Position numbers and translations under genes: made by a program. A stretch of DNA of 64,000 nt from Lytechinus pictus (taxonomy: Eukaryota): the NCBI RefSeq assembly GCF_037042905.1, contig NC_087251.1:13456001-13520000 (forward strand). The letters run 5' to 3'. The notes below the pieces were generated by a model. That model was not told the origin of the DNA, ran no database searches, and saw nothing but the letters and a program-made list of their open reading frames with translations. Numbering within the stretch: the stretch's first letter is position 1; every line of letters begins with the position of its first letter. Shown piece after piece: positions 6,797 through 62,930 of the stretch.

Positions 6797-7109
6797 GTCC
6801 ACCGTGCTTTTACACATAGTCATAGACACGGGACTAGGGTAGATTGTGGTCTCAATAACTTGGAAAGAATATTGTGAAAACAGAAATTATGCACTTACCA
6901 CGATTAAATGGATGAAACTGGATGCGCGCGTGCGGGTGGTGGACGTGTTTTGATCATACCTCTCAGATTTGACTCTAAATTTGTGAATTCTTATCGGATT
7001 GGAGTATCATAAGTGAATATCTTGACATAAGATTGGTTTCAAGACAGCGGTGTGCTTCATTTTGGATTGAGATTGGCATATTTTCAGAGGATTTAACTAG
7101 ATTCTGATC

Positions 7110-31600: not shown

Positions 31601-34600
31601 CCAGCTGTCGATTAACTATGTAAAAAAATGAAATTCATATTTTTAAATATTTAGCAGAATTAGCACCATATTTTGATTGTTTTCATTCAATCCCAAAGGA
31701 TATTCAAGCACTTACTATCTTAAAAATTTCATAATATCAGAAAGATACAAATTATGTACCGCATGACAACACAAGGAATATGAGATCAATATGACGATTT
31801 TGCAGTCTATGAAAAGTCATTATTCACAGTTAAACAGAAGAATACAAACTTGTTAAAGACTTCAGTGTTCATCAGAGAAATGTGGTTTAATGAAAAAATA
31901 AATAAATTCTATTCATAAATCTGTGATCAATGCAGGTTGATTTTTCTAGAAAAAAAAAAGAGTACAATAGTACAGATATTAAAGCCTGCAGCCGCTTTAG
32001 AAAAAAAAAATGCAGACATCGTTGAAACCTTTTGTTACGTCACATGTCTTTTGTGTACGTGCGCATGAGGTGTTTATGCCTTGCCTCCTGTTTTTTTCTT
32101 TCCTTGTTTAAAATATACAAACTACATATTGACATGGGATTTCACTACTGTTATTGTACAAATTAGGGACTCCTCGTACATGTATGTGCACAGTACACAT
32201 TGAAATATAGTATTGTGCCCTTTCCAAACAGTTGATTACCCCTCTTCTGGTCAATACCACACACAGGCAAGTACTTCAGTGTAGTAAAAATGTATAGTTA
32301 CAATGAATTTTTTTAAATTTAGGAATATAGACAGTGTTTCAAGTTGGATTAGCGGTGGTAAGACAGCACCTGTATATAAAGTGTGCATACATGTAGCCAT
32401 GTACATATACTGTATTGTTATTTATTTGATCTTGGAGATAATGTACATGTACTGGTAGATTCAAGTACAGCATGTACTTTTAGTATCTTTTCTTATAATC
32501 CATGAATACTTCACTTGTGGGTGATTAACCTGATATTTTATTCAAAAAGTGGTCAAATGAATATTTTTAAAAAGCATGTTTACTAATACTATTAGAATAT
32601 GATTTCAACCGTAGAGACTGACTTTTCCACATCATGCATATACCTGTAATTATGAAGTGGTAAAACTTATTTAGTGGGAATCTGTTCAGTATAACTGTGA
32701 ACTCTCCATGTGATCTTGGTAGCAATGTTTACGTGATCATCTTGTGAATCAGTGGACTGTGGTTTTTAAGATAATTTTGCAATGTGTACCAGTTCTCGAG
32801 TGACTGTATTATGACGGAAGGTCTACAGTCGCACATGAAGCGATCTTCACCTGGGGGAATTTCTTATTGTCTGCCAAGTTGATCTTAGATCTTGAAAACT
32901 TTCCTTCGCTTTGATTAAATAGCTGAGAAGCACATATTTGTGATTGTTTCTATCTTATGGTAAACTGTTGGATAAAATATGTGATAGAAAGTTCTTTCAT
33001 GAAATTCTCCCCTGGATGTACATGTACTATAGTGTTAAATGCTATTGTGAAAAAAAATGAACATGAAGGGTTCACATCGTACCTTTTTCCCTACTTCCCA
33101 ATGCAGAGGTTGTTTCCATAACAACTGAACTACATGTACATGTACCCATCTGGTTGAAAAGTGCTGCTCTAATTGACTACTGTGCTGTAATGTACATGTA
33201 GATTACAAATACAATGCCCATCTGATCTTAATGAGATGATGTGAACATTTTGTTCCAAACCAACAGTAATTGTGATGTCTTTCTACAGTTTTGGGTATTT
33301 CTATGTTGTTTTCTGGCTAATGAACCATTGTTATACATGTACATGTATCTCTTGATTCTCTTCAATTGGTTAAAGATGTTGCAGGGGCTGTTTCTACGAT
33401 GTTAATAACCTTTAAAATCATTTTGTTTTAAGCTATTGATGAAGTGAGTGATTTGTGTGCAGTACTTGTACATGCTTCGTCTTTTCAACCCAACTCTTGT
33501 GCTCATGGTCCGGGCTGAAAATATTTATATCTTAATACATAGAGTAGAATTCACTGAGCAATATGCCGAAAATTTCATAAAAATCGGATAACAAATAATA
33601 AAGTTATTGAAGTTTAAAGTTTAGCAATATTTTGTGAAAACAGTCATCATGAATATTCAATAGGTGGGCTGATGATGTCACATCTCCACTTTCCGTTTTC
33701 TTATGTTATTACATAAAATCATAATTTTTTCATTATTTCATACTTGTGTGAATAATATGTCTCCCTTATAATGAAATAAGTTGCAGCAATAAATATCTAA
33801 TGCACTAAATCAGTTGCCAATCCAATTTTTCTAGTTCTTGGAGGAAAAAATTTGAATAAACCTAATTTCATATAATAAAATACAAAAGAACAAGTGGAGA
33901 TGTGACATCATCAGCCCACATAATGAATATTCATGACGACTGTTTTCACAAAATATTGCTAAACTTTAAAATTCAATAACTTTGTTATTTGTTATCCGAT
34001 TTTGATGAAATTTTCAGCATTTTGCTCAGTGAATTCTGCTCTATGTATTTAGATATAAATACTTTCAGCCCGGACCACCCCTTTAAAGTGCTCCCAACAC
34101 CAACGTTTGAACCCCCTATTTTCAGCCTAAATTCCTGTTCCAGAGCATCACCAATTTAGAAAGCCATAGAAATTCATATTTTTTCCCTGTTCCGGAGACC
34201 CTCAAATTTGTGATTTCTTGTTCCATTGCCCGCACAGACTCAGTGCAGCCCAATGGCATATTGCCATTGGCTGCGTGAATTCAATGGATACATGTGTAGC
34301 TAGCTCAGCACAGCAATTCGGAGACTGCTGATTGGTTCATCACACAGAAACGTCATGACCAATTTCATGCATATTGCAATGCTGCGAAACAGTATTTATG
34401 CCGTTCCAGAGCATTGCGTTTTAGCAATCGTTGATACTAGAACAGTTCCGGAGACCCCCATTTTAAGACCAACGTTTACATGTAGTTTCAGAGCCCCTGA
34501 TTTTGTTTTTTGGTGCGGCACATAGGTATTATTTTATAATTCGAGTACCTCCCTCCTTCCCCCCCCCCCCCCCCGGGCAACCAATCAGATTTGATGATTT

Positions 34601-37600
34601 CCGGAGCTTTTAACTGCTAGTGCAAATTTGTTATAGCAAGTTTTGTGAAACAGGCCTCTGTACTTAGAATCCCTCATAAGTTACAAATAGTCATGGTACC
34701 AAATTGCGTTTTTTTTTCAGCAATATAGTCTTCACTTTGTTCTTTTAACAGACTCCACCAAGCCCACAATGCAACTTGTCCAGTCCCCTCTGGCTTCAAA
34801 GCTCAAAGAACCTATGCGCATCCATGGACCTACCACCAACAGCGTTATCGTTGCTTGGACAACCAGCCAGCCCTGGCCATCCAGTCCTTCCCCATCATCC
34901 CCATCCACATCATCATCGACCTCTTCCTCATGGAGTTCAGGAAACAGCCCTTCCTATTCCTTCCAAGCCAACGATCCAGGGACATCCAAGGTAGACCATG
35001 TGGTATCCTCCACCAAGATCCTGTGTGCCGTGTGTGGGGATCAAGCCACAGGGCGTTATTTTGGTGCTCAAATCTGCGAAGCATGCAAGGTTTGTGTCTT
35101 AGTTTTTCAATTCTTGAACAATGCATGTACAAGTTTCCTTAATGATTCATGAATTGGTCTTTAGTTTTTCATATGTTATTTTAAAGCATGGATGCATACT
35201 AATTCTATGTCTTTTGTAAGTATGCACATGAGAAATGTGTGCTTAATTTTGCTTACTGCAATATGGACTGCTATGAGAGGCATGGTTTCTAGACAGCCTC
35301 AAGGGGACCGCAACGGGACTATGATGGTCTGGCAGGTACGTTACCCGCGAGCCGAAAGAAACAACCATGTCTCGAATATCAAAGCAGTCCATATATATTT
35401 TATGAACTGAATTAAACGTTACATCTACGTCTAGATCTAGACTAGATCTAAAACAATAAAGCCTAGATCTAGTATGCCCTACTCCAGGCTAACTCCAAAT
35501 CGTACGGTCTGGAATATCAAAGCAGTCCATATTTTATTATATTATTGGGAACCGAATTGGAGTCTAATATGGTAATAGATCTACATGTAAGTCTAAATTC
35601 TCCAAAACAGTCTAGATCTATGTCAGATCTAAAATTAAACATTAGGTCTAGATCTATAGTCTTATCTAACCAACGTTAGATCTAACGACATCGTTGTCGT
35701 TTAACATAACGTCCCCAGGCTAAATTAACTTATCTTTTAGCTGAACTCGCTTGCTTCAACAAGGCTTGATGATTGATACATTCGTTATGTCCTTGATAAG
35801 TTTCCTTTAGTCTTCTTTCCAATAATGTCTTTATTTTTTAACCGAAATACAGTAGAACAAGCAACAGTATAGGATCGGCATCATTCCATCGACCTATCAT
35901 ATCCGCTGCGCGCACCTGCGCATTAAGACTGTAAATGCGCGCACTGTCTAAAAATTTTTATTCGATCGTGCGGATATTTATGGTATCCGCAATCATCGCA
36001 GAAAGCAACATTTTGCACGCAATCACATTGGGATCTCAGCCAAATTTAACTATGCCCGTTGTCAAGGGCCTGTTGCCCTTGGTAACCACCTTAGTCTGTT
36101 GTTTTTTGGGTATGGTCAAATACATGACCCCACTTTTGACCAATCAGACGAATGGCTTACACGACATTCTTAAATAAAGAGAGGTTTATGATAGAAAATA
36201 TCCTAGATGGATGCATAAACCCCATTAATTATTTTAACTATTTTGTGACCTTTGGATATTGATTAAGTTCCATTTGATAATTTCACTTTCTATGAATTTA
36301 GAGCTTTTTCATCAGAAGCACAAGAAAAGGAGAGCCCACCTTTCGATGTGTGAATAATCAGGACTGCCACATCACCCCCTTTTCAAGGCTGCTATGTCAG
36401 TACTGTCGCTACCAGAAATGCATGAAAGCAGGAATGGGCCGAAAAGGTAAGCGCAATAAGCTAATCTGGCAGAGATGTCACCAATTGTTATGCATGATTG
36501 AAAGTCATAATTGAATTCAGACCTTGCAGTAAGCTCTCATGCAATCAGTTCATTGCCACAGGCTCTCTTCGTGCTGTATGTCAGTCACTCTTCTAGTAGA
36601 GGGAAAATATTTCTGTCATTCTGTAATGATAAATGAAGATGCTACTAAAGAATCAGAAGAGTGGTATTATGTAATGCTTTTTAACTACTGGGCAGTTACA
36701 TAACATAATCTTTTTTGTATTTTTTTTTTGTATTTTTTTTTCATTCTTCACTTACATGTAATAATGACTATTTGAGCTGTGATGATTTCAATTCAATTCA
36801 ATATTTTAAGAGCATTATAATTTTTCATGTGCACTTGAAAATAGAGACCTTTACCTTCAGATTGAGCAGGATCCAGGAAAAATGAACCATTTTACCGGGA
36901 GTCAACAAAAAATTATTTGCTGTAATACAAGTTTTTCAAAGGAACAGGGAATTCATTACGTCCACATGCCACTGTTATATGCCAGGAAAAACCTGATTAC
37001 GCTCATCCCATGACTTTGCGCCTTGTTGCTTACGAAACATAATAATACCTTTATCAGTATGATGTGTGTCTCCAGAACATGTACAATTTACAATGTACAT
37101 GTATTTTCTCTTTATTCATTCAATCTATTACAGATGAAGGGCCTAGCCCTGAATATTTTTTCATAAAACTTTGAACAAACTTTCAATAACAGCTTAATGG
37201 CACTTAGAGCATTCAATCTGATTGATTGGTAATAAATATAGTTATGGTGCATCCGCTATTATAGCAATTCTTTACGAAATGGGCCCCAGATTAAGTGGAT
37301 GTCAGTGAAATTTATATACGTGTAGAGTATCTCTTGTCTGTCCATCTTTTACATTTATTACCACTAGTACATTTATGTGCATTCATACTTTATATCTTCA
37401 TTGTTTCAATTCTTACAGTTAAAGAGCCCAACAAAGATTTAGCCAAGGACCAAGTCCCATGTAAAGTTTGTGGTGATGTGTCATCGGGTATACATTTTGG
37501 AGTGTATACATGTGAGGGCTGTAAGGTAAGTTTGAATCTCTTTGTCCTTTAATACTGTTTACGAGTTTTAAAAGATAAAGAAATTTTAGAAATTTATCAC

Positions 37601-40600
37601 CTGGAACCCATATAAACTTTTTTTTTAATGATCATGAACTTTAGGATGAGATTCCCAGAATAAAGGGAAGTCAGGGTTTGGTGTTTGATGGTCAGGATTA
37701 AAAGCATGGTGTCTGCTTTCCAAGACCTATTGACACTATATAAAAAAAAAAAAAAAAAAATCTTGGACAATATATGTCAGTTACTGGTAGTTGTGTTATT
37801 TGTTTTTGATTGAATTTTATCACTTAACATTGTGAGTGAAGGTGCGGGAAGACTTTATACTCTCTCTGCTATGACATTTTGTAAATGTCTATTTCTGAAT
37901 CATAATAAGCATCTATTTTATCTCAAAGAACCTGCCATGGTGACTAAATGTGAGCACGGAATTCCATGATGTGATTTTTGAGCTGGGTAGTCATATAATC
38001 TATCACTGGTTTCTGATGAGGGCACTGGGAATCCACTCTTCTCTCTGATATCTTTATTGAATATGATGCTTTTTTTGTCTGCAATTTTCCCAGGGCTTCT
38101 TCAGGAGGAGCCTTCGTGATAGAAATACCTACAGCTGTTCTGGAAAAGAGGAGTGCATCATAACATCTGTAACACGGAACCATTGTCGCTATTGCCGCTT
38201 CAAGAAGTGCCTTAGTGTGGGCATGTCAAGAGCCTGTAAGTTTTCTTATATCATCCAGCTACCATGCCTTTAAATCAACTAGACTGTAGCTTTAAAGATA
38301 TGCCGTAACTGCCTTTTAAAGCCACAAATACCACATGAAAAAGGGTGCCTTTGATTTACTACTTCTGTCAACAGTTTAAAAAGTGTAAATCTAGTCTGTT
38401 TCCTTGAATAAGGATGGCTGTATTCACCTCACAGTCGCAGCAATCACACTTACCTCTTCTCTCCACTTTGCAAAATTCAGTCCACCTGCTTTCCTCCTCC
38501 ACTTGCATTTCCTCAAACCACCCATCTCAAATTCGAACCTTTCTAAAAAATAAATCCTGTCATGCCTTTTTGTTCTTCTTGTTATTTGTCTATTTTACAT
38601 CTGAAAATTCTTGTCCAAGGGGAGGGGCTGTTTTTGTTCAGATACTTGTGGCAGCAAGACCCAGTTTATTAAAGCACAATGCAGCCTTTCAACATTTCTG
38701 CAATGACATGAAGGATGCTTGAAATGTTTGCTTTTATATTTATATTGTACATGACAAAAGAAGTCTGAGCTGGATTTTTTTATTCACAATAATGAACTTC
38801 CTTTAATGTTATATTACAGTGAGATACTTGTTGGGTTACTATGTTCATAGATATATTCACACCCATGAATTACTATAGAAAGCATAAATGCACATTGTCC
38901 ATGTATGCACCTTAATAAATTCTGTAATTGCTTGTTTCCCAAAAATGGTTGAAGATTGAATCCTCCAATCATTTAGTGGCCTGTTAAGGTTTTTAGTAAA
39001 TTGTTTATATTTTATATTTAAAAAAAATGAATTCCTTAGAAAGGCCAATTATTAAATATTGATATATTAAAATATTATTTCATCATTTCATCATATTATT
39101 TTAATAAATTTGGTCAATATTGTTGTGGCTTCACAGGTATCAAGTTGGGAAGACACCAGAAGTATAATACTCATCTTGTTGAAGATCAAGGTAAATCCTC
39201 AGTAACACCTCCTCTTTGGCCAAATGGAGGAATGCAGAGTGGTTTACAATCTAGCCCTGAAACTTCATTATATAAAGAGAATAGTAATAAGATATCTGCA
39301 AGGGATGTTGATCAGCGGACAGAGCAAGAGCAAGGAAACAGTATTCAGAGGGTCTTCAAGCAAGAAGGTGCAGTAGGTGCTACCCCAGCTGTAAGAGAAG
39401 CACTAAAGAAGAGCTCCTCCATACCAAAACAATCGAGTGAATCTTGTACACCCCATAGTGGGTTGTCTCCTTTGGACATTCCCAAGCAGTCTGTTAATCA
39501 GCCAAGTGTGTCCCCAAGTAATGCCCATTTCCAGTACTTACCGCAAAACTCTCCTTTGCTTGCCACATCAGACAAATGCGCAGAGATGTCTGTTGCACAT
39601 TCAAGGAGCAGAAGCAATCATCACAAAAAGAAACCCACTTTATCTAGTGCACACAGTGTTTCCTCAAGCCACCCCATGCCCCAGCCACTTTGTGTAAATA
39701 ACAGTGGCTGGGAAGATCGCAGTTTACCAAAGAATACATTTTCTCCATTGCAGTTTGACTCAGACAAACATTCAACTGTTGGTTCCAAATCTGATTCATC
39801 TGTACACCCTCAACCTGGAGACATGGTACTCATTAAAAAGGAAGTATTAGATGCCTCTGCATATTCTCCATACCATTCATACATTAGTAATCTGAATTGC
39901 TCCCACCTCAGAGAAGATATTACTGCCAACCACGAGGAACAAGTTGACATAGACACTGCCAGAATTGCTAGTGATGAAAGATTTGTTGGTAATCTAGTTG
40001 CTACATCCACAACTTTGACTGAGCCAGATGTAGTTGAAGTTTTGAGTACTATGGTAGAGAGAAATAATGCTGAACATGATTGTCATGTCTCTTCAGATTC
40101 TCAATTGATGTCTATGGAAAGTGAATCAAGAAAAAACATTCACACAAATATGTGTGTATCCCCTGCAGGATCAAGTGCTTGTTCTGTGCCTGGTATCTCT
40201 CCCCAGAGTAGTCCAGGGCCATCCTGGTATGTTTCAAGGTCACAGACACCAAGTCCTGCAATCCCTGGCTGCGCTGGTGCATCTCCCACTGCATTGCCCA
40301 CTCTTCCATTTGATAAGTATAAGCAACAAACAGAAGCATCAGATGAAACCAGAGAAGTAGCTTTTACATCTGGTCCAGTTACACCTGTAATATGTGCTTT
40401 AGAGGACAGTGAGTATTCACCTGCAGCTACCAGCCCAAGCCATTCCTTCTCCTCCCAAAGTTCACCTATATCTCATTCTGCTAACTCTAGTGTCAGTAGT
40501 CCCTTGATGGATCAACTTCAAAATAGTCAGGCTCTTCTTTCCTATGACAGGCTCTACACCTGTCCATTTTCTGGTCATGTTTCCGCCAATGTTGCTCGTA

Positions 40601-43600
40601 ATGTTGCTTTGATCTGCCACAACCTCCTACAGAGGATGAAGAGTGGACATCTGACTGATCGAGTGTTGTCCGCCCAAACAGAGTGGGACCTGATGAAGCA
40701 CACCAGTGATCTTGGAGCCCTCGAAAGAGACAGCATTCTGTTTGATTTGACACGCAGCATGACTGGATACACTGCGGTCATGAAGTCATTGTTACACAAC
40801 GAAAACATACGAACAGCTACAGAATACGTAAGTGTTTTTTCAATTTCAATTATCCATTTGTGATATTGAAGTGACTGTCATGTTTTTTTCACATACAAGT
40901 GATTGGATTTGTAGTATTTAAATTCTTTTTGTAAGAGAGTATCAGAACAGTGACACGTGGGCATTCTATACATTGGTCGAATCCAATTGAATATTAATGG
41001 GCAGTTAATATTTTACTTCTTGCAGTTTGTATCAATTATTTAGAGGAGATTTAATTTCCTGTGGGAGGGTAAAGGCAGAAATGACAAAACATGCTGTCAT
41101 TTTTTTTTTCATGGACTATATCGTCGTGTCGGTGCAGGAACACCCTTAGCACCACATCTGAGCACCTCACTTGTGCAGAAATGCTCTTATGTCATTCTCT
41201 AGTGCGCGCTACCAAGGGCGTTTCTGGGTGCATGCAATGTGCGAAAGTGTGGTGCTAAGGGCGTTCCTGCACAGACACGACGAAATGTATGCTTGTCTTT
41301 CTAGAGAGCAAAGCCTGTCATCTGTGTACTGCATTTTCCCTTTATTGCAGAATGGAAGTACAAAATTGATTTTGATTTCTGCTTATTCTATTATTTTGTT
41401 TTGTGAAAAGCAAATTAAAAAGTTTCAATGCATGCCCATACCTAGTGCTCTTTTTATGTTTCAGACCATGGAGGTACTCTGTTGTGGGGTTTTCTTTCCG
41501 TCCTGTGTTTGTTCTTGTGATAATTAAGAACACTTGACAGATCAACTTCGAACTGAGACCGGGGGGTGTTTCATGAAAGTAGTCAGCACTGACTAAATTG
41601 TCAGTGCTGACTATTTTAGTAAAATCCTTGCTTGTGATTGGCTGAGAAGCTCTGGCCTCTGACTGTTACTATGGTAACTGTCAGAGAAAAACATCTTGTC
41701 AGTGCTGACAACTTTCATGAAACGGTCAGGTATTGATATACTAGTCGGATTGGCAGTGATCTAGCTGATTTTTTTCTATCAAGGTCAAAGGCCAAAAAAT
41801 ACATACAGGGGGATTATATATAGTTTAATCTATTTTTTTATGTGATAACTGAGGAACTGTTTGGGGAATGAACTTCAAACTTAGTTCATGTTGGATGGAC
41901 AATGATCTGTGTAGATTTTTATGGTCAAAGGTAATGTTGTAAATCGGATCAAAAATCAGATCGAAAATCGGATCGGCAGTTAAGCTTCTAAAATCGAAAT
42001 CGAATCGAAAATCGAATCGGCGATGTTTAAAAACAAAGGAATACATCAAAATGTTGTTCGCGGTCGCGCGCATCTTCCTGACAAAGTCACAAAGACGAAT
42101 GCATTGGAATGGAAGTCGCCAACATGCGCGATCGTTTGGAACATGTTTTAAAGCCAGTGGTTATTGCTTTAAAATAAACCGAGTGATTTTTATTAGAAAG
42201 ATAAATGAAAGACGCATCTTCCGAGCAAAGGCGCAAAGGAAAATAAAATGAAAATATTTCTCATAGATCACAGGTTAATGAACGATCGGCGGGACATCTT
42301 TTAGATGTATTTTTAGGTGCTAGCGATTTAGAATTATTGGAATGATCTCTTACGACGCATCATCTTAAAGTCGCAAGTGCAATGAAAATGAAGTAGAAGA
42401 CGCAAGCACGCACGATGATTTGAAATATGTTATTAAAATGTTTTGGGTAGCTAGCGTTTTCAAATCAGTTTGAAGTTCACGGCGGGGTCCGCTATCACCA
42501 CGAGGTTGAAGAGAAGATTTATATCATCATAAAGGGGGTAAGAGAGTAGCGCAGTGAGCTCCGTCGGTAATACGACCTTTCAAAGTTCACGGCGGCTTCC
42601 GCTATCACCACGAGGTTGAAAATAAAATGTATATCATCATAAACGATGTAAGGGAGTAACTCAATAAGCTCCGTCAATAGTACAGTCTTTAAAAGTTTAT
42701 GGCGGGGTCCGCTATCACCACGAGGTTGAAGAGAAGATTTATATCATTATAAAGGGGGTAAGAGAGTAGCGCAGTGAGCTCCGTCGGTAATACGACCTTT
42801 CAAAGTTCACGGCGGCTTCCGCTATCACCACGAGGTTGAAAATAAAATGAATATCATCATAAACAATGTAAGAGAGTAACGCAATAAGCTCCGTCAATAG
42901 TACAGTCTTTAAAAGTTTATGGCGGGGTCCGCTATCACCACGAGGTTGAAGAGAAGATTTATATCATTATAAAGGGGGTAAGAGAGTAGCGCAGTGAGCT
43001 CCGTCGGTAATACGACCTTTCAAAGTTCACGGCGGCATCCGCTATCACCACGAGGTTGAAAATAAAATTTATATAATCATAAACGATGTAAGAGAGTAAC
43101 GCAGTGAGCTCCGTCAGTAATACGACCTTTCAAAGTTCACGGCGGCATCCGCTATCACCATGAGTTGGAAGAGAAGATATCTATCCTCTTAAACATCGCC
43201 ATAGATAATACCGCGTCTTTCTCCCTGAATAATGCGACCTCTAAATAGCTAGCACCTCAAAAACAATCTTGAAATATGTTCTGAGCGATCACGCACTGTA
43301 ACCAGATCTACGCCGATTTTTTATTTTCGATTTTTTCCTTCAAGGGGCATGATCGAAGATCGGCAAGTGATTGCCGATTGTGGTGAAATCGAATGGAATC
43401 GGTTGCCGATTGCAAAATCGGTTACAAGCTTAGTCAAAGGTCACAGAGGTCATGATACATGTAGACCTGCAAAAAAAATTTGTTCGTAATAACTAAAGAA
43501 CCGTACTAAGGATCAACTTTAAACTTGGCTCATGTAATGCATGCAGGTGTGATGATGATATGATCAGAGTTTGCTTTCACAAGGTCAAAGTTCACAGGAT

Positions 43601-44643
43601 GATTATTTGGAGAGTTTAGAATTCATGTACCGGGGTAGTTAAATTTTTGTTCTTTTATTTTCATTTCTCTATTTAGTTGTCACACAATCGGGAATGCAAT
43701 AGTGGCCTCCATTGGGACAAGTTTAATGAGACTGTTAGTATGAAGATCATTGCCAGTGTTCAGTATATCAAGAAAATACCAGGTAAATATTGTAAATAGT
43801 TTATTATAATCTACTATTCAAATGATCAGGGAAACATTTAACCCACAAATTTAGACGGTTTTGATGCTTAAAAGCGAAAGAAGGCTTATTCAGCCTCCCC
43901 CAGTTCTTGGGTGTGACAGCACGATTAGGATGAGAATTGTTGCCAGTATTATAATCTTCAAAACTAAATCAATATTTTTTTCCCCAAAAAAGGATTTCTT
44001 TTTTTGTGTTCAAAGGAATTTTTTTTAGCTCTCGATCACTATTCAAATGGGATAGTTTTTTGTCAAGACACTCTGTACAATTTCAAAGGATAATGCTTTT
44101 TAAAAAATTTGGGATTTTTTTGTGTTTTCTAATGAAAATCTTTGTTTTTCAATTAAGAAGTCATCAATAAAAATTCATCCTCAAGAACCTGATAATTGTT
44201 TTCACCACATTTTGTGCATTTGTTGTCATGAATGACCTTGGAGTAGGAGAAAGAAGAAAGAGGGTAGGATGAGAAGGAGAAGAATAGTTGATACAATGTC
44301 ACCCCCTTGAACCTGATTATTTCTGTTCCTTTTTTCCGCAGGATTTGCATCCATCGACATGAATGACCGTATAAACCTGATAAAGCACAGCGTATTCCCT
44401 ATTATCCTGGTCCACAAAGCTTGGAAGATGGGTGAGGAATGGAAGTGGATGGAGGATACGTTCTACACTAATGCCTCCCTACGCAGGATGTCTGATGGCT
44501 TTAAGGACATGACATATTCTTTCATCAACCAGTTCAATTTGGCCAGCTTTGATAGCATCGAGGTGGCACTTCTCATGATACTGGTAACGCTTAATCCAGG
44601 TAAGCTTCTGTTTCTAGGAATGGGAAGGGGGAGGGAGAGAGAG

Positions 44644-44675
<32 letters not shown>

Positions 44676-47600
44676 CACTTACACACATAGGCAACTGAGG
44701 CAAATTGTTCATCGAATTGTTTTGTACTTATAAACACAATTTATTTATGAGTGTGAGCATATCTTCTGGACAGTGGTGTGTTGTGTGTGTGTTTGTGTGT
44801 GTGTTAGGGCGGGAGGGTAGAGGGGGAAGATTTGGTGTTTAAGCATTTTTAAAATAACTGATTTCATTGTTTTCTTTTAAGATATATATGATTCATGATT
44901 ATATTAAGTTAGTGAAAAAAGTGAAAATATGAAATGTAAAGTATTATATGTGATTTGAAATGTTAAATTAAAATGTTATGTAACTATTTGTTCATGAAAT
45001 CAGAATAAAAACAGTATTCAAAACAAAAAAAACTGAGGACTCACATACTTCACATTTGTAACGAGAACATGCAACAAACTGACATTATCCGCAGTGCAAA
45101 TTATATGCTTTGTATGTTTGGGTCCAGTTAAAAATTTCTCAGTTAACATTGATTCGGCTGTATCATGAAATTTCATTTGGTCTTCAGTTGACCTCAATCC
45201 TTCTAACAACATGGTTTTGAAAGTCTGACGATGTAAAAAATTACAATAAAATTGAAATTTTGATGTTTTTGTATGTCGACTGAAAAAGGGTTTGTGGGGG
45301 TGGCTAAACTTCCAATCCCCAGTTCCGCATCCTATGCATAAAATTCTTGATTATGTAGTAACAATAGTCTTCTGCAAATAGATTTGTGTGTTTGTCAGTC
45401 AAATATAACTGTTTCTATTCATTACTCTCTGAAAGACCTGACTCAGGGCTCAAAATTTTGTACTCTAAATCGGTAGTCAATAACTGCCACATGTGGCTAG
45501 ATTGTTATTATGAGAGAATTAGGGATCCAATTGTCGTTCGTCCGTCACAAGCCTTATGACACATAACCCCACAACCGTAAGTCACTTTTCAACCAAACTT
45601 GGATGGTAGATGGACTTGGGAGACCTGCATGTTATGCTGCAGTCAGAGGTCACATGGTAAGGTCAAAGGTCATTTTCAGGTCAACGTTAAAGTTTACATG
45701 CAAGACTCTCTTATGACACCTAACTCTGCAACCGTAAATCACTTTTCAACCAAACTTGGATGGTAGATGGACTTGGGGGAACCTGCATGTTATGCTGCAT
45801 TTGGAGGTCACATGGTAAGGTCAAAGGTCATTTTCAGGTCAACGCTATAGTTTACATGCAAGACTCTCTTATGACACCTAACTCCGCAACCGTAAATCAC
45901 TTTTCAACCAAACTTGGATGGTAGATGGACTTGGGGGGACCTGCATGTTATGCTGCATTTGGAGGTCACATGGTAAGGTCAAAGGTCATTTTCAGGTCAA
46001 CGCTAAAGTTTACATGCAAGACTCTCTTATGACACCTAACTCAGCAACCGTAAGTCACTTTTCAACAAAGTTGGATGGTAGATGTACTAAGGGGACCTGC
46101 ATGTTATGCCACAGTCAGAGGTCACATGGTAAGGTCACTTTCAGATCAACGTTAAAGTTTACGTGCAAGACTCTTATGACATATAACTCTGCAACCGTAA
46201 ATCACTTTTCAACCAAACTTGGATGGTTGATGTACTTATGGGACCTGCATGTTATGCCACAGTCAGAGGTCACATGGTAAGGTCAAAGGTTATTTCCAGG
46301 TCAGCGTTAAAGTTTATTTGCAAGACTTTCTTATGACACATAAATCCACAACTAAGTCACTTTTCACCCAAACTTGGGTTGTAGATGTACTGAAGAGACC
46401 TGCATATCATGGCGCAATCAGAGGTCGCATGGTAAGGTCAAACATCATTTTGAGGTCAATGATATGACCCATAACTCTGCAACCATAAGTCACTTTTATA
46501 CCAAACTTGGGTTGTAGGTGTACTTAGGAGACCTGCATATTATTGTGTTTGGAGGTCACATGGTATGGTCAAAGTTCATTTTGAGGTCAACATTAAAGTT
46601 TACGTGCAACACTCTTATGACAAGTGTTAAATTCCATCCCAGTCATTTCACAATGAAGTTTCGATACAATTCTGTTGCGTGCCCTCGCAAATCACGATAT
46701 TTCTGGGTATTTTCATAAGTAGGCAGGACACAAAATCGCTTATGCCTTGTCTTGCTATTGATGTGGTTGTCGAGATTATATATATATTTCTGCAAAATTC
46801 TTATACTATGTGCTGTGCAGTGTGTGAAATGCCACATTTAAATTCTAATTTGTAAAAAATGCATTCATTGATTACAATACCTACTGATCCATTCTTTTGG
46901 AGCTGGGTCAACTTACTTGGGTGACTGTGCTAGATATATCACATTAACAAAGAACTGTAACTGGAAATACTTGTTGACTCTTTGTCTGAGATGGACCAGT
47001 CACCTAGCAAGCCAGCAAACAGTGATGTCTGATTGTTTTTCTTACTCACAGATTTGGAGGGCTTAGTGAACAAGCAGGCTGTTCTTAAACTTCACAAGGA
47101 TTATCGCACCATTATGCAGAATTACTGCCTTGGTATGTAAAGGTGTTTAAAGGAAAATGTAACCTTGGAAACAAGTTAGCTTCTGTGAAAGCAAAAAAAA
47201 AAAGATCAATTACAAAAATTAATGAAAGTTTGAAGAAAAATTGAACAAGTGATAATTTTATGAGCATTTGAATGTTAATATCACTAATTATGTGGACATC
47301 TTCCCATTGGTAATGCAACCAACATGTGTGATGTCACTTTGGTACAACTCCCCAAATATTTTCTACATATTTTACTACATTTGTGACTTTTATCAAGTCT
47401 ATCCATATTTCAGGGCCCTTTTTCATAAAATGTTGCTATGATAGCAAGTCGTGCTTGAATGTCGAGTACCATGACAACAGTGAAAATTCTGTTTTTTGAT
47501 AGGATCTTCCATTGAAAGGTGATATTCCAATAAGAGTTGGTATTATAGCAACTTTTTATGAAATGGGGCCCAAGTGTTCTTTATTATCCATGTCATGCGA

Positions 47601-48731
47601 AGACATTGAAAGGTTTAATAGACAAAGCATTAGTTATTTCAACAGTCAAATGCTCATAACTTTCTCAATGTCTGCCCAATTTTTCTCACACTTTAATTGA
47701 TCTTTTTTCTTTGATTTTTATGTTTTCATATAAGGCAACATGTTTCAAGGGTTTCATTCTCCTTTAAGATTTATTGTTCAATTAATTTTTAAACCTTTTT
47801 TAAGCAAGGGTTGTTTAAATTTAAATTTAAGATGATTATATTTATGTTAACTTGTTTGATTTTTTTTAGGGGGAGGGATCTTAGCTTTATTGGTAATAAA
47901 TTTCTCATTTCTTATCCTAAGTGTCATTAAAAAAAAATGTAAGTGCAAAGAAATTCAATTATTCATCTTTTTATTTCTGCTTCCCCAGCGTTATCTTATG
48001 TGTTGGGTTGTTTTTCCATTCTATTGTTTATATGGTAAAGAAAATTCTTGAGGATGACACATCATTTATTGCACTGAGAAGAATCCTATTGCCCCAAAAA
48101 TGTCTCTGCTCATATAAGGCAGTGACAGGGGTCTTCCAAAAGATGATAAACCATATCATTGAAAATATCTGAAAAGTAAACTTGGAAGGCTTTATGCCTA
48201 TGAATTTCCTTTCCATTGAAGTAAAAATCTTGTGATCTATCTATGCTTCTAAAGCAAGTCATTCTAATGAGAGTGATGTAATAAACTATTTAAGATAGTC
48301 ATAACATAGGCAAGCATTTATAGAAAATGCATAGAAACCCACAAACAATTTGACAGCTTGAATTAAGATACAAGGCATATACAGCTTTGCCAATGTTTAT
48401 TTATCTGTGAATATATTTATACGTAAAATCCCATATCATTGACTTTGTCAGCAGGCTATATACAATATTTTTATCATTCTTTGGTTTGTCATATTGGGTC
48501 AATAAATGTAAAATTTCATTGTTCAGATTTTTTAATGGTTTTTGGTATTTTCATTCATACTCCTTTATTTCTCCAGAAACACATGGCAAATTGGACAACT
48601 ACTTGATCATGTTACAGTTTGTGCCCTATCTCTCCAAAATTGACCTTGTCCACAAACGATCCATACGGCAGTGTGAACATTCTACTTTCTCCATGCCGGC
48701 TCTCTTTGCAGAAATAAATCTGTCTTCATAG
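25627..48731 (+). CDS. Nuclear hormone receptor with two tandem DNA-binding domains (2DBD-NR). Spliced CDS join(25627-25657, 34752-35089, 36302-36446, 37419-37525, 38094-38235, 39137-40827, 43677-43782, 44342-44599, 47052-47132, 48577-48731), ~1017 aa
   Basis: Manual splicing: all introns are GT..AG, phases are consistent, and the total is 3054 nt ending in TAG. DBD1 reads [52 protein letters not shown]2 reads [49 protein letters not shown]. The LBD signature is [22 protein letters not shown] and the C-terminus is [11 protein letters not shown]. The first exon is less certain. Confidence 0.93.
27146..27990 (+). mobile_element. HINE copy 3 (in the probable first intron of the NR gene)
   Basis: TTTTTTGTCTCACCTG ... 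CCAGAGGCGCTCCACTTGTT. Confidence 0.8.
28986..29590. mobile_element. TTAA-flanked MITE (Kolobok-like termini)
   Basis: TTAA|AGGGGAATCCAACC ... GGCTGGATTCCCCT|TTAA. Confidence 0.85.
29624..29907 (+). mobile_element. Internal HINE fragment
   Basis: Contains TAGTTCATGAAACTTGG, AGGGTCAATGAACTTTGG and other unit sequence. Confidence 0.7.
33506..34086. mobile_element. Palindromic TTAA-type MITE
   Basis: TGGTCCGGGCTGAAA ... TTTCAGCCCGGACCACCCCT|TTAA with ~190-bp inverted arms; same family as 58364 and 62931. Confidence 0.85.
34752..35089 (+). CDS. 2DBD-NR exon: Ser/Pro-rich A/B region plus first zinc finger of DBD1
   Basis: Acceptor TCTTTTAACAG; encodes [24 protein letters not shown]; donor AAG|GTTTGT. 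Confidence 0.92.
36302..36446 (+). CDS. 2DBD-NR exon: second zinc finger of DBD1
   Basis: TTTAG|AGC; encodes [48 protein letters not shown]; donor G|GTAAGC. Absent from the ORF track. Confidence 0.95.
37419..37525 (+). CDS. 2DBD-NR exon: inter-DBD linker plus first zinc finger of DBD2
   Basis: TCTTACAG|; encodes [36 protein letters not shown]; donor AAG|GTAAGT. Confidence 0.95.
38094..38235 (+). CDS. 2DBD-NR exon: second zinc finger of DBD2
   Basis: TTTTCCCAG|; encodes [47 protein letters not shown]; donor T|GTAAGT. Confidence 0.95.
39137..40827 (+). CDS. 2DBD-NR large exon: C-terminal extension of DBD2 (CIKLGR), long Ser/Pro-rich hinge, start of LBD region
   Basis: TTCACAG|GT ATC AAG TTG GGA AGA; 1691-nt open frame (ORF 39145-40863); donor TAC|GTAAGT. 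Confidence 0.92.
41121..41283. mobile_element. Small MITE
   Basis: TCGTCGTGTCGGTGCAGGAACACCCTTAGCACCACA / TGTGGTGCTAAGGGCGTTCCTGCACAGACACGACGA. Confidence 0.75.
41561..41727. mobile_element. Small MITE
   Basis: GTTTCATGAAAGTAGTCAGCACTGAC / GTCAGTGCTGACAACTTTCATGAAAC. Confidence 0.75.
42473..43195 (+). repeat. 110-bp tandem satellite (~6.5 units) with an alternating A/B higher-order structure
   Basis: GGCGG..TCCGCTATCACCA starts at 42481, 42591, 42701, 42811, 42921, 43031 and 43141. Confidence 0.92.
43677..43782 (+). CDS. 2DBD-NR exon: LBD helix 3 region
   Basis: TTTCTCTATTTAG|; encodes [35 protein letters not shown]; donor G|GTAAAT. Confidence 0.9.
44342..44599 (+). CDS. 2DBD-NR exon: LBD signature (about helices 4-8)
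   Basis: TTTTCCGCAG|; encodes [25 protein letters not shown]...[17 protein letters not shown]; donor G|GTAAGC. Confidence 0.92.
44636..44675 (+). repeat. (GA)n(GT)n microsatellite
   Basis: Direct reading. Confidence 0.9.
45505..46755 (+). mobile_element. Second HINE-like family with ~158-bp tandem units (~7)
   Basis: AACCGTAARTCACTTTTCAAC recurs at ~45573, 45730, 45888, 46047 and 46193; units contain GAGGTCACATGGTAAGGTCAAAGGTCA. The termini are uncertain. Confidence 0.65.
47052..47132 (+). CDS. 2DBD-NR exon: LBD helix 9 region
   Basis: CTTACTCACAG|; encodes [27 protein letters not shown]; donor G|GTATGT. Confidence 0.88.
47147..47767. mobile_element. TTAA-flanked MITE
   Basis: TTAA|AGGAAAATGTAACCTTGGAAACA ... 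TGTTTCAAGGGTTTCATTCTCCT|TTAA. Confidence 0.8.
48577..48731 (+). CDS. 2DBD-NR last coding exon: LBD helices 10-12 with AF-2-like motif
   Basis: TTTATTTCTCCAG|; encodes [51 protein letters not shown]. Confidence 0.9.
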
Positions 48732-51008
48732 TTCAATATTGATTTTCTTGAAGAAACAGGGCAGGTTAGTTGAAGACATCATTAGATTCTTCTGTCAGTC
48801 AGGTTAGGCAGAGTTGAAAAAAAAAATATGTGTGTATTCTTCAAGTCTTGTGTGTATCAGAAATTGTGTAACAATATTCCTAAATGGATGACAGGTAATC
48901 ATGTTTGTTTTGTTATCTAGTTGTAGAGTAAATATGATGTGATTACCTAGGATCTGTAGGAACCATTTCTTTAAAAATCTCCTCAAAAAAGGTTTATTTC
49001 TTGAGACTCCTATCTTATTATTCCATTATCTAATGATTGCCATTTTTATTTGATAAAATGAATGCAGTCTCAAATTAATTTAAAGGAAACCAAAGGATTC
49101 ATGTTTGAAGGTAGAAAATGCTTGCACCTTTTGAGAAAACAAGATTTATTTTACTAGTCATGTTAAATCTTTCAAAAATTTACCTCCAAATTGCACTTAA
49201 TTGAATCTTATTAACTAAAGCACATTAGAGGGGAGGGAAATTTGTTTTCTTTAAACAAAACTTGTTCTGAATATTTTAAAATAATTGAGTGACCATATTG
49301 TATGAGGCCATCTTTGAAATTGTAATGTAATTTGTGAATTCAGAGGCACGCAGTGTATACCCAGCTTTGATACACAAGAATATGCAAAATATGGCCATTG
49401 TCTAAACCAAAATGAAAATTTGTTTAAAAGATAATTTTCTAATTTGTGTGTGTGTGTGTGTGTATTTGATGTCATAATTGTTCACCATGGAATGAAATGA
49501 ATCACATTTGTATAATAATTTGTGTGTGAAAAAAATTCAATGAAAGAAAAAGACCGAAGTGTACTATAAAAAACCAGGGAGATGTGCACAATGTGTTTGT
49601 GCCTTTTGATTACCTCAAATATTTTTCATTATTTTTTTTAATTATACAATAGATTTTTTCCTGACATTTTGATCGGCTCATTGCTGGTGGCATGTTCTGT
49701 TTGACGCTGAGTTGTAAACAAAATTTGTCAAATTGTGTAGTATAAAGATTTGTTTATTGTGACTAGCAATGTTGTTTAGAATTAATTATATGTCAGTGTA
49801 CAGAGAGTAGTCATTGGGAACTAAATGGATAAGTGTATATGTACTCTTTCTGATTGAAGTAAGCACATGTATTGGCATGCACGTACAGAATGAATACGCA
49901 AAGTAGTGTTTGTCACACAAATAATTTTTGCAATGATTGATCCTTATGGACCTGTACACTTAAATTGATATTTTCCATCGCCTGTACACACCACCGTGTA
50001 AATGTAAATGCCTATAGATATACATCGTTAAAGGATTGCAGATTTGATACTTACCAGATGCTCTACATCCTTTCACGAGACTCCCATTGTAGCTTTGCCT
50101 CCAATGGTTATTACCATGGAAACCTTAATTTGTTGCCATGGTTATTGTCATGGTTAACCATTAATGGTTCATCATTAACATACAAACCATAATTTTGATT
50201 AGCTGTTGAGCGATTTTTGCGATGGTAGTTGCCATTGATAACAATTACCATCAGTGGTTTTCTGTAACCATGGAAACCATTTTGTGTGCTGTTGATCGAC
50301 ATTGCCATAGATAACAGGATTCCTGTCAGTGGTTCATAGTGACGGAAACAATTTTGATAGTCTGTAAAGTATGCTGCCATGCTAAATGGAGGAGTCCTCC
50401 TTAAGGGTTCACTGTAAACAGTCCAAGGCTTTATCCTACCCCCAGGACTTCAACTATAAAGTATATGTGGGCTCAATCCAAAATTTACCCCCCCCAAAAA
50501 AAAAAAAAAAAACACCCAGTAATTGATGCTACATTGTGTGTTACTGTACATCACCAATGTAATCTTCATTCTTGCTCCATTTTATGAGGATCATTTCACT
50601 TATCAAACAAAACATTTAAGGATGTTCCCCAGTTAAGTTTGTGTGCACGCTGATCTGTGCGCGCAATGACTTCACAATGAATGAATAGGTGATCCATTCA
50701 TGTCACGTATCAGCTGATTTTACCTGTGGTCTGCACTCTAACTGCAGATCTAATCTATTATTTTATGAAGCTATTAGCTGAAAATAATCCACAGACCCAC
50801 TTTCGAAATTCCTATACAACTTCAGAGTATTTTCTTCTGAAGAGCTGCAAAGTATGACGAGTATGGCCTCGAATTTGAATAAATGGGAGAGTGGTTTGGA
50901 ATTTTTATCACACAGATATTATGCCATTGGCTCATTTTAGAGTGTTTTACAATCACATTAGCTACAACAAAAGTGCTGATAGTTTGAAAACAAGCACGTG
51001 AACCCCCA

Positions 51009-51897
51009 TTTTTGTCTCACCTGCATAGCAGAGTGAGACTATTAATAGGCGCCGCTTTTCTGACGGCGCCGGCGGCGTCAACATCAAATCTTAACCGAAG
51101 GTTAAGTTTTTGAAATGACAGCATAACTTAAAAAGCATATGAAAGTAGTTTATGAAACTTGGACATAAAGTTAATCAAGTATCACTGAACATCCTGCCCG
51201 AGTTTCAGGTCACATGACCAAGCTCAAAGGTCATCTAGGGTCAATGAACTTAGACCATGTTGGGGGAGTCAATATCAAAATCTTAACCTAAGGTAAGTTT
51301 TTGAAATGCCATCATAACTTAGAAAGTATGTGTAGCTATTTCATGAGAGTTGGCCATAAGGGTAATCAAATGTTACTAAACATCCTGCCTGAGTTTCAAG
51401 TCACATTACCAAGGTCAAATCTCATTTAGGCATTTTAGGGTCAATGAACTTTGGCCAAGTTGGGGATATTTGTTGAATTACCATCATAACTTTGGAAGTT
51501 TATGATCTGATTCATAAAACTTGGACATGAGAGTAATCAAGTATCACTAAACATCCTGTGCAAGTTTCAGGTCACATGACCAAGGTCAAAGGTCATTAAG
51601 GTCAATGAACCTTGGCCATGTTGGAGATAATTATTAAATTGCTGTCATACCTTTCAAAGTTTATGGATATAGCTTATGAATTGTGGACATAAGGTAATCA
51701 AGTATCACTGACAAGTCTTAGTTCACATGATCAAGGTCAAATGTCATTTAGGGTCAATGAATGCACAGTAGTATTGTTTCATTACATGAATGGTGTTTTT
51801 TGTGAATAGTTATGTTAAAGTAGTTTTGTAAGTCAGCACTGCTGCTATATTGAATTGCGTAATGCAGGTGAGACTGCCAGAGGCGCTCCACTTGTTT
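51009..51897 (+). mobile_element. HINE copy
   Basis: Both subTIRs and the central units are present. Confidence 0.8.
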
Positions 51898-53819: not shown

Positions 53820-54234
53820 CTTTTAATCCTCAAGTTATTGCATAGACAAAAGAGGCAGAAGAAAGGTGCTATGGAATCCCACATGCGGTTGAGCTTCAGA
53901 CGTGAACTATGTGGGGTACCTAAGCAGGCCCTGTTGCATAGAGTTGCTATAATTGTAACTTCCATTGCAACACTGTTCAACAGCCAATCACAATAAAGGA
54001 TTCCTAGGAAGTTATAATATAAGATTATCAAACTAGCCTTTTATTTTCCCTGCACATTATTCATGTATGACAAAAATGTCTGTGTGCAAATATGAATAAG
54101 GAGAAAATGGAAAAGACAAACAACTTCTTGGTACGAGAACCATCTGAGATAATTTCCTCTCTCAACCCAGGTGTATTTTATGGTGCCCGCCAGGAAATGC
54201 AGTGTTAAAAGAAATTGAAACCCCCAAAATCTAA

Positions 54235-54560
54235 AGAAAATACCACATAATTTCATTGAAAAATACAGGATAATCAAAATGAATTCACATATACCCCAAT
54301 CTGATTCCCTGATATGGAGTACCAACTCTTCAAATTTGGCCTTCTTCAGGTTCGATGTCTCTGGATGGAGATTTTGAATCATTTTGAACTGCGAAAATGG
54401 TGTCCTCCATCCAGAGACTTTTAACCTGAAGAATCCCACCCTTGAAGAGGTGGTACTCCATACTGAAAACCCAGATTGTGGTATACATTGTAAGTGGATT
54501 CATTTGATTATCCTATATTTATCAATGATATTATGTGGTATGAGATTTTATGGGTTTCAT
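54235..54560. repeat. Degenerate inverted repeat (old MITE)
   Basis: GGAGTACCA..CTTCAGGTT..CTCTGGATGGAG is mirrored by CTCCATCCAGAG..AACCTGAAG..TGGTACTCC. Confidence 0.7.
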
Positions 54561-61932: not shown

Positions 61933-62930
61933 TATAGGCGCCGCTTTTCTGACGACGGCGGCGGCGTCAACACCAAATCTTAACCGAAGGTTAAGTTTTT
62001 GAAATGACAGCATAACTTAGAAAGTATATGAACCTTCTTCATGAAACTTGGCCATGAGGTTAATGAAGTATTACTAAACATCCTGCCTGAGTTTCAGGTC
62101 ACATGACCAAGGTCAAAGGTCATTTAGGGTCAATGAACTTAGACCATGTTGGGGGGAATCGACATCAAAATCTTAACCTAACGTTAAGTTTTTGAAATGT
62201 CATAACTTAAAAAATATATGGACCTAGTTAATGAAACTTGGATATAAGCTTAATCAAGTATTACTGAACATCCTGCATGAGTTTTAAGTCACATGACCAA
62301 GGTCAAAGGTCATTTAGGGTCAATGAACTTTGGCCATGTTGGGGGTATCTATTGAATTACCATCATAACTTTGAATGTTTATGGATCTGATTCATGAAAC
62401 TTGGACATAAGAGTAATCAAGTATTACTGAACATCCTGTGCGAGTTTCAGGTCACATGATCAAGGTCAAAGGTCAATGAACTTCAGCCATGTTGGGGTTT
62501 ATCTGTTGAATTACCATCTTAACTTTTAAAGTTTATGGATCTGATTCATGGAACTTGGACATAAGAGTAATCAAGTATCATTGACCATCCTGTGCGAGTT
62601 TCAGGTCACATGACCAAAGTCAAAAGTCATTTAAGGTCATTGAACTTTGGCCATTTTGGAGGTAATTATTAGATTGCTGTCATAACTTTCAAAGTTTATA
62701 GATATAGTTTATAAAATATGGATATTGGGGTAATCAAGTATCACTGACAAGTCTTAGGTCGCATGATCAAGGTCTAATGTAATTTATTGTCAATGAACGT
62801 AGTATTGTATCATTATATGAATGGTGTTTTTTGTGAGTAATTATTTCATAGTAGTTTTCAAAATCAGCACTGCTGCTAAATTGAATCGCGCGATGCAGGT
62901 GAGACTGCCAGAGGCGCTCCACTTGTTTGT

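Follow-up and report, generated by a model that had tools for sequence, protein, structure and literature searches.

Does one sea urchin gene place two DNA-binding domains (DBDs) together with one ligand-binding domain (LBD) in a single nuclear receptor mRNA and, if so, to which receptor group does its product belong and how might it read DNA? The question is raised by a 64,000-nucleotide stretch of the Lytechinus pictus genome (contig NC_087251.1, positions 13,456,001 to 13,520,000, forward strand; hereafter the window), in which an earlier note, made from the sequence alone, had placed an intact receptor gene with two tandem DBDs at 34752-48731. We conclude that this locus, LOC129264923, is very probably the single-copy L. 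pictus orthologue of the echinoderm two-DBD nuclear receptors (2DBD-NRs) of group B (2DBD-NRB), with 10 coding exons that specify 1017 aa in the order A/B domain, DBD1, 22-aa linker, DBD2, long disordered hinge and 12-helix LBD.

Gene model and splicing of LOC129264923

The stop-to-stop open reading frames (ORFs) on the + strand at 34.7-48.7 kb hold nuclear-receptor motifs. Across 34752-48731, the exon borders are GT..AG and the frame is kept, the first four exons being in frame from an ATG at 34769. The C-terminal 250 residues of the long exon, used as a query, retrieved LOC129264923, with 100% identity, and also the S. purpuratus orthologue LOC100893306 (P0002). In one RNA-seq run (X20), 37 reads had a loose end at 34752, and their consensus is unique in the window, at 25628-25657. 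Because of this consensus, the GT donor and the exact match to the RefSeq protein, an upstream exon at 25627-25657 was joined to 34752. Translation of the resulting 10-exon model gives exactly the 1017-aa RefSeq "uncharacterized protein LOC129264923 [Lytechinus pictus]" (P0001), and all 1017 codons lie in one uninterrupted frame. The nine exons proposed in the earlier note do splice in frame, and the end of their span, 48731, is the stop codon. Their number and the start of the span had to be revised, as there are 10 coding exons and the annotated ATG lies in the missed exon 25627-25657, revealed by the X20 reads. The coding exons are as follows.

25627-25657 (+), coding part of exon 1: ATG, residues 1-10; GT donor after 25657, the 5′ untranslated region (UTR) reaching further upstream
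34752-35089 (+), exon 2: phase 1 to 0; A/B domain and first zinc finger of DBD1 through the P-box CEACK; AG/GT borders
36302-36446 (+), exon 3: phase 0 to 1; second zinc finger of DBD1 and beginning of the inter-DBD linker
37419-37525 (+), exon 4: phase 1 to 0; remainder of the 22-residue linker and first zinc finger of DBD2 through the P-box CEGCK
38094-38235 (+), exon 5: phase 0 to 1; second zinc finger of DBD2
39137-40827 (+), exon 6: C-terminal extension with the G-box KLGRH, hinge of ~500 residues, first LBD helices
43677-43782 (+), exon 7: LBD; the LBD signature begins at residue 848 and runs on into exon 8
44342-44599 (+), exon 8: LBD core; Hormone_recep match on 44317-44604
47052-47132 (+), exon 9: LBD; required for the exact match to the RefSeq protein
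48577-48731 (+), coding part of exon 10: last LBD helices, activation function 2 (AF2) core PALFAEINL, stop codon

The 3′ UTR reaches at least 48894, the end of the cDNA contig described below, and read depth goes on to 49500.

Splicing was analyzed with three raw-read stranded RNA-seq runs (X19-X21) and a contig set (X1), all with the same species label, mapped on 34000-49500. All eight junctions within this interval were present in each of the raw-read runs, with 5-34 reads and GT..AG borders throughout. Read counts in X19, X20 and X21, respectively, were:

35089/36302: 16, 34 and 14
36446/37419, joining the two DBDs: 16, 20 and 5
37525/38094: 13, 19 and 13
38235/39137: 19, 18 and 12
40827/43677: 21, 11 and 13
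43782/44342: 23, 26 and 13
44599/47052: 14, 31 and 7
47132/48577: 13, 22 and 11

Exonic reads were almost all "first mate on -," which under the usual stranded-library convention indicates RNA of the + strand. One 2791-nt contig of X1 runs from 37417 through to 48894 with the exons joined and no introns, so that X1 must be cDNA-derived. Seven junctions are exact in X1 and the eighth shows a one-base difference at 40827; the 36446 to 37419 junction is also present in a cDNA contig. No junction that skips DBD exons (35089 to 38094 or 36446 to 39137) was found among the 15 joints listed, of 16 in all. The LOC129264923 locus is transcribed from the + strand and all introns of 34000-49500 are spliced as modelled; both DBDs and the LBD are therefore carried by one mRNA. 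The earlier note had proposed reads across the first four junctions as its check and had named, as observations that would speak against it, transcripts never joining 36446 to 37419 or a lack of expression together with neutral divergence. All four junctions occur in the three runs, the one between the DBDs also in cDNA, and the gene is expressed and diverges in a domain-structured manner.

At the donor of exon 6, the X1 cDNA contig has a T instead of the last exon base of the window (40827), and the raw runs show plain GT..AG. The change looks like a polymorphism at the last base of the exon.

DBD1 is encoded by exons 2 and 3 and DBD2 by exons 4 and 5, and both two-exon cassettes run from phase 1 to 0 and then from 0 to 1. 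In both, the intron directly follows the "CK" of the P-box, and the end of finger II comes one base beyond GM(G/S)R(K/A). Such phase-identical cassettes are what one would expect had the second DBD arisen through duplication, in tandem, of two DBD exons. Skipping of exons 4 and 5 or of exons 3 and 4 would keep the frame (935 and 934 codons, respectively, with no internal stop). The text of the paper that described the echinoderm group (PMC10497141, see below) does not mention "intron," and "expression" occurs in it only within a reference title.

Domain hallmarks, relatives and conservation

Exon by exon, Pfam zf-C4 matched at profile positions 2-24 on 34769-35089 and 25-69 on 36302-36445 (E 1.4e-11), and again at 2-24 on 37421-37525 (E 2.6e-09) and 25-70 on 38094-38234 (E 2e-16). 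These profile spans indicate two complete DBDs. With the full protein, two stretches matched zf-C4 (E 4e-50) and residues 830-993 matched Hormone_recep (E 7.9e-11), whereas the hinge exon segment 39139-40827 matched no Pfam family. The nine cysteines of DBD1 are C102, 105, 119, 122, 139, 145, 155, 158 and 163, and those of DBD2 are C186, 189, 203, 206, 222, 228, 238, 241 and 246, with a gap of exactly 22 residues between C163 and C186. DBD1 has the P-box CEACKS; that of DBD2 is CEGCKG, and the next residues are FFRR, as they are in NR1 receptors. The G-box KLGRH lies at residue 257, after a five-residue pre-Grip that follows DBD2 (GM-SRACI-KLGRH; regex match), and the AF2 core LFAEIN fits the pattern hydrophobic-hydrophobic-x-(E/K)-hydrophobic-hydrophilic. 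The two DBDs of the L. pictus protein are 45% identical to each other; identity to E78/NR1D DBDs is 61% for DBD2 and 45-52% for DBD1.

Much of what the earlier note had read from the letters is borne out by these analyses: the A/B-DBD1-DBD2-hinge-LBD order at 34752-48731 (GT..AG borders, frame and Pfam domains), the nine cysteines per DBD with their 22-residue spacing (C102-C163 and C186-C246), and the expected two zf-C4 stretches and one Hormone_recep match on the full protein. Its view of an intact echinoderm two-DBD gene also holds, the product being 100% identical to the L. pictus RefSeq protein, the gene transcribed and spliced, and the domains conserved. The CEACKK that it quoted as the typical first P-box is not that of L. 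pictus.

The predicted model of the LBD had a predicted local distance difference test score (pLDDT) of 78-94 over ~residues 760-1000. It superposed on the LXR and VDR LBDs with VIA Z 23-24 and a root-mean-square deviation of 2.5-2.9 Å over 220-229 residues, up to residue 1015-1017 (helix 12), many rows being tied, and the top Foldseek matches were RAR, LXR, FXR and PPAR. The LBD is predicted to adopt a canonical NR1-like 12-helix fold with helix 12 and the AF2 core. Disorder is predicted for the A/B domain and the hinge; pLDDT was <50 for most of residues 250-736. The nearest Protein Data Bank (PDB) entries by sequence were RAR-gamma, PPAR-gamma and RAR-beta, and all top matches of that search align to residues 173-304, i.e., DBD2.

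According to the available portion of the paper that defined the groups (Wu & LoVerde 2023, PMC10497141), a single 2DBD-NR, of group 2DBD-NRB, is present in each of the echinoderms studied, among them Lytechinus variegatus and S. purpuratus. The same source gives an inter-DBD spacer of 17-22 aa for groups A and B, a G-box KXGR(P/H) after a five-residue pre-Grip and an AF2 core of group-B type for 2DBD-NRB, and CEACKS-CEGCKG as the P-box module of the echinoderm members; it describes group 2DBD-NRA as absent from echinoderms. We placed the L. pictus protein in echinoderm 2DBD-NRB because of its P-boxes, its G-box KLGRH, its AF2 core LFAEIN and the trees. The CEACKS-CEGCKG module was found in 10 echinoderm proteins and one hemichordate protein (Glandiceps).

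A tree was built from 45 two-DBD proteins, leaving out P0003 (hinge fragment), P0033 (195-aa inter-DBD insert), P0048 (DBD2 only) and P0049 (partial). At its deepest split (100/99*), 24 CEACKK-CEGCKG proteins, which are group A, parted from the other 21. This group-B side comprises 11 CEACKS, 1 CEACKI and 9 CLPCKS-CEGCKK proteins; within it, L. pictus and S. purpuratus formed a pair (99/90*) nested in a clade of Echinoidea (100/98*). The LBD tree was based on hand-picked receptors, 33 with two DBDs and 10 with one, each represented by its last 260 residues, without P0011 (truncated LBD) and without P0014, P0015, P0018-P0020 and P0034 (precomputed Pfam lists lacking an LBD). In it, 12 ambulacrarian rows lay on one side of a branch (93), and 32 of the 33 two-DBD receptors stood apart from the NR1D/E78/NR4A rows (88). 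Finally, DBDs were treated separately for 17 of 36 proteins with two regex-found DBDs, chosen for taxon spread, and 15 of 72 single-DBD proteins, in an alignment of 70 columns. All 17 DBD1s grouped (90), as did all 17 DBD2s (88), each across groups A and B, at nodes with no starred support. Such separate clustering is consistent with one origin of the two-DBD architecture. Separate trees of this kind had been suggested in the earlier note, and in them the DBD1s, the DBD2s and the ambulacrarian LBDs each group together.

Known receptors share these features to different degrees. Lv2DBD-NRB and Spur2DBD-NRB, as characterized in the available part of PMC10497141, have the same architecture, the CEACKS-CEGCKG module, the 17-22 aa spacer, the KXGR(P/H) G-box, the group-B AF2 and one copy per genome. 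The S. purpuratus protein is 93% identical to that of L. pictus over both DBDs and is its sister in the trees. L. pictus is not named in that paper, and exon structure and RNA junctions are added here. Lophotrochozoan 2DBD-NRB proteins (e.g., the Crassostrea Cg2DBD-delta type) fall on the same side of the deepest split, with DBDs 50-54% identical to those of L. pictus, but their P-boxes are CLPCKS-CEGCKK instead of CEACKS-CEGCKG. The DBD1s and DBD2s of 2DBD-NRA (Schistosoma Sm2DBD-alpha/beta/gamma, Echinococcus 2DBD, mollusc 2DBD-gamma) cluster with their group-B counterparts, whereas the first P-box is CEACKK and the proteins form a separate clade (24 rows, 100/99*). In the literature available, 2DBD-NRA is the only 2DBD-NR group with experiments, which show an LBD homodimer and no RXR heterodimer (PMC1810520). 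Single-DBD NR1 receptors (RAR, PPAR, LXR/VDR/FXR, Rev-erb/E78) share the P-box and FFRR of DBD2, to which they are 57-61% identical; they have one DBD instead of two, and LBD identity is only 15-21%. Membership in this single-DBD class was ruled out by the two DBDs, and the LBD clusters with 2DBD-NRs, although DBD2 and the LBD are NR1-like.

The gene thus confirms a known receptor group and is already a RefSeq model; it is not a discovery. The novelty implied by the earlier note is overstated, since echinoderm 2DBD-NRs with CEACKS-CEGCKG, a Lytechinus member among them, had already been described in 2023 (PMC10497141, available portion). Among the matches listed for L. pictus and nuclear receptors in the literature, none is about this gene by its title.

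Two hemichordate proteins, of Glandiceps talaboti (P0012, CEACKS-CEGCKG) and Ptychodera flava (P0013, CEACKI-CEGCKG), possess two DBDs each and are placed with the echinoderm group. The Saccoglossus kowalevskii model (P0048) holds only DBD2 and may be N-terminally truncated; an orthogroup member without two DBDs is given for Saccoglossus in the available portion of the Lymnaea genome paper (PMC11589774). All three hemichordate LBDs cluster with echinoderm LBDs. As judged from these sequences, the 2DBD-NRB group extends to hemichordates, which PMC10497141 does not mention. We found no report of a two-DBD receptor in hemichordates in literature that was mostly judged by title or the start of the abstract.

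Conservation was assessed in an alignment of 12 ambulacrarian proteins, from 4 echinoids, 1 ophiuroid, 3 asteroids, 2 crinoids and 2 hemichordates. Identities of the 11 orthologues to the L. pictus protein were:

A/B domain: 12-61%
DBD1: 72-91%
Linker: 36-86%
DBD2: 65-98%
C-terminal extension: 57-89%
Hinge: 11-51%
LBD: 26-83%

Within this alignment, no change occurs in any of the 18 DBD cysteines, in either P-box helix (EACKSFFIRST in DBD1) or in the basic residues past finger II of DBD1. The linker is partly invariant (R170, K171, K173, D182). In the G-box, L258, G259, R260 and H261 are invariant and K257 nearly so; P1007, A1008, L1009 and E1012 are nearly invariant in the AF2 tail. Among the listed differences between RNA reads and the window, 9 of 13 in exons are synonymous, with 6 synonymous and 1 non-synonymous in DBD/LBD exons and 3 of each in the hinge. 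Both DBDs and the LBD appear to be under purifying selection across echinoderms and hemichordates.

When the 812-Mb assembly was searched in six frames, the LOC129264923 locus was the only one to match the hinge, the LBD and both DBDs (at least 82% identity). The other 26 places listed match only residues ~171-260, with 40-58% identity, and are scattered, no two being close together; counts from genome searches are lower bounds. By this measure the gene appears to be single-copy in L. pictus, without a 2DBD-NRA paralogue. Annotations of 11 further ambulacrarian species show this two-DBD architecture as well. The best 120 of 275 matches included no holothurian orthologue, which says nothing on its absence.

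DNA recognition and rival explanations

From nuclear-receptor biology and the 2DBD-NR literature, the L. pictus receptor would be a sequence-specific transcription factor. DBD2, with its NR1-like CEGCKG and FFRR, would read an AGGTCA-type half-site, and DBD1, whose CEACKS is closest to the ERR-type EACKA, may read a second, adjacent site; the group-A P-box EACKK has been likened to the same ERR-type EACKA (PMC10497141, available portion). The short conserved linker and the C-terminal extension of DBD1 would fix the spacing of the sites. The LBD would dimerise as in flatworm 2DBD-NRs, where an Sm2DBD-alpha homodimer was obtained by yeast two-hybrid and glutathione S-transferase (GST) pull-down (PMC1810520, available portion), so that up to four DBDs might assemble on a composite element. 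The composite multi-half-site elements that the earlier note foresaw for this receptor would be of this kind, but as a hypothesis they stand less firmly than its gene model. AF2 would recruit co-regulators, possibly upon binding some ligand.

Several points weigh against reading LOC129264923 as an intact 2DBD-NRB that uses both DBDs in this way. The RNA evidence comes from ~6% of each raw-read run, of unspecified tissue and stage. The translation start is ambiguous, since the S. purpuratus model begins at an internal Met, the one at 34769 that is residue 17 of the annotated L. pictus protein. The 20-residue LBD signature (Ti) fits at 7 of 8 defined positions, with R for Q/K, and the strict regex gave 0 matches; the DBDs were modelled only at pLDDT ~50-67. 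The echinoderm rows do not come out as one clade in the two-DBD tree, although their monophyly is not rejected by the approximately unbiased test (p-AU 0.26), and the monophyly of Ambulacraria is likewise neither recovered nor rejected (p-AU 0.21). Four of the 13 exonic variants listed are non-synonymous (3 in the hinge, 1 in the LBD), and the RNA differs from the window at 160 further places in 34000-49500 beyond those listed. With respect to DNA binding, electrophoretic mobility shift assays (EMSAs) of DBD1, DBD2 and DBD1+DBD2 of a flatworm group-A receptor on direct, everted and palindromic AGGTCA repeats (1-6 nt spacing) showed no binding, given as "data not shown" in the available portion of PMC1810520. 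A simple AGGTCA-repeat model may therefore be wrong. For group B, the available parts of the 2DBD-NR literature give no DNA-binding, ligand or dimerisation data.

A rival explanation is that only DBD2 reads DNA and that DBD1 serves protein contacts, non-specific DNA or RNA contacts or allostery, which would make the protein an NR1-type receptor with an accessory zinc module rather than a reader of four half-sites. DBD2 is indeed the canonical one of the two, by its higher identity to E78/NR1D DBDs and as the target of the top PDB matches; its P-box is nearly fixed, while that of DBD1 varies by group (CEACKK, CEACKS, CEACKI, CLPCKS), and the negative flatworm EMSAs concern both domains alone and together. 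However, within Ambulacraria DBD1 is as conserved as DBD2 (72-91% versus 65-98%), and a selected DNA-contacting surface would show just the pattern seen: nine invariant cysteines, an invariant EACKSFFIRST helix and invariant basic residues past finger II. On these grounds we consider this rival unlikely, though it deserves to be taken seriously.

The concern that the two DBDs reside on alternative transcripts, as mutually exclusive or skipped cassettes, or in two adjacent genes, the two-DBD protein being an annotation artefact, has its basis in the phase symmetry of the cassettes, which makes skipping of exons 4 and 5 or 3 and 4 possible in frame. It is hard to reconcile with the 36446/37419 junction, seen in three runs and in cDNA, with the lack of skipping joints among those listed, and with the two-DBD architecture annotated in the 11 further ambulacrarian species, and we regard it as extremely improbable. 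Smaller still, and close to nil, is the chance that the locus is a decaying or silent duplicate or that one DBD was duplicated in tandem by the assembly. The long and poorly conserved hinge is the sole point found for a pseudogene, whereas the frame is open throughout, the gene is expressed, spliced and single-copy, and synonymous variants dominate in the domain exons. With only 45% identity between DBD1 and DBD2, a recent or assembly-made duplication is not expected, and DBD1s and DBD2s fall into separate clades across phyla. We thus prefer to read LOC129264923 as an intact gene for one receptor with two DBDs.

Repeats of the window and value of the gene model

AGGTCA half-sites, of the type that DBD2 would read, abound in the window. 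They occur in AGGTCA-rich tandem arrays with all half-sites on the + strand, two of which lie in introns of the receptor gene:

14629-15433 (+), AGGTCA-rich tandem array
20173-21065 (+), AGGTCA-rich tandem array
27250-27807 (+), AGGTCA-rich tandem array
45553-46459 (+), AGGTCA-rich tandem array
61196-62747 (+), AGGTCA-rich tandem array

The repeat unit is 157-163 bp, with a 192-bp unit ahead of some arrays, and contains 3-4 co-directional half-sites, e.g., in the direct repeat (DR) arrangement DR7-DR1-DR5 at 45647-45683; single DR1 sites are present at 51583 and 56902. AGGTCA occurs 107 times on the + strand of the window versus 13 on the - strand, and there are 17 perfect copies of AGGTCAAAGGTCA versus 0 expected. 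Genome-wide, the AGGTCA triple (DR1+DR5) was found in 1598+1421 copies versus 0 for the reversed control. These numbers indicate a dispersed family, not a feature of the receptor locus, and a locus-specific link between the repeat and the receptor gene was rejected for that reason. RNA depth is ~140 over the intronic AGGTCA array, and the repeat family is strongly represented in RNA. Literature on sea urchin AGGTCA repeats, as judged by title or the start of the abstract, shows no such repeat family. It may be imagined that a homodimer of the ambulacrarian 2DBD-NRB, with four DBDs, has its natural elements in the DR7-DR1-DR5 four-half-site arrays of this ~157-163-bp family, present in two introns, on both flanks and in at least 3,000 places of the genome. 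We consider this idea very unlikely; if true, a transcribed repeat family would be the binding platform of an orphan receptor class.

The remaining elements of the window include a non-LTR (long terminal repeat) retrotransposon remnant of the long interspersed nuclear element (LINE) type at 7101-11499 (+). Its ORF 8587-10740 matches Exo_endo_phos, Exo_endo_phos_2 and RVT_1, and breaks at 8586 and 10743 split the frame into adjacent ORFs. At 42473-43194, the intron between 40827 and 43677 contains a tandem repeat of 110/220 bp (6.6 and 3.2 copies), probably a repeat family given its both-strand reads and high X1 word depth. The last intron contains, within 47386-47667, an inverted repeat resembling a miniature inverted-repeat transposable element (arms 47413-47463 and 47521-47571, 78% complementary), around which the RNA showed an "opposite strands" joint (47386/47639). 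The short stretch 34054-34173, which lies directly upstream of exon 2, was covered mainly by reads of the opposite strand (first mate on +), with an X1 word depth of 3834 and heterogeneous loose ends at either side; most likely it belongs to a repeat that is dispersed and transcribed and is a piece of it. Over the whole window, Rfam gave 0 matches at gathering thresholds and ARAGORN 0 tRNAs. ORFs 7101-7931, 7897-8583, 10744-11496, 3246-3761, 54044-54499 and 17952-18323 matched no Pfam family at E≤0.001, and a DNA_pol3_a_NI match on 3335-3874 (-), with 22.2 bits against a cut-off of 22, was taken as chance.

In the available parts of the 2DBD-NR literature, no DNA target, ligand or loss-of-function phenotype is given for any member, and only Lymnaea expression patterns are reported. 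Our analysis adds an exon-level gene model, direct RNA evidence that both DBDs are carried by one transcript, the phase-identical DBD cassettes and the single-copy status of the gene. Little is added to the classification; the value lies in a verified starting point from which an orphan receptor class can be studied functionally. Use of the sea urchin L. pictus in genetics is growing, which together with the gene model makes tests of how two DBDs read DNA straightforward to design.

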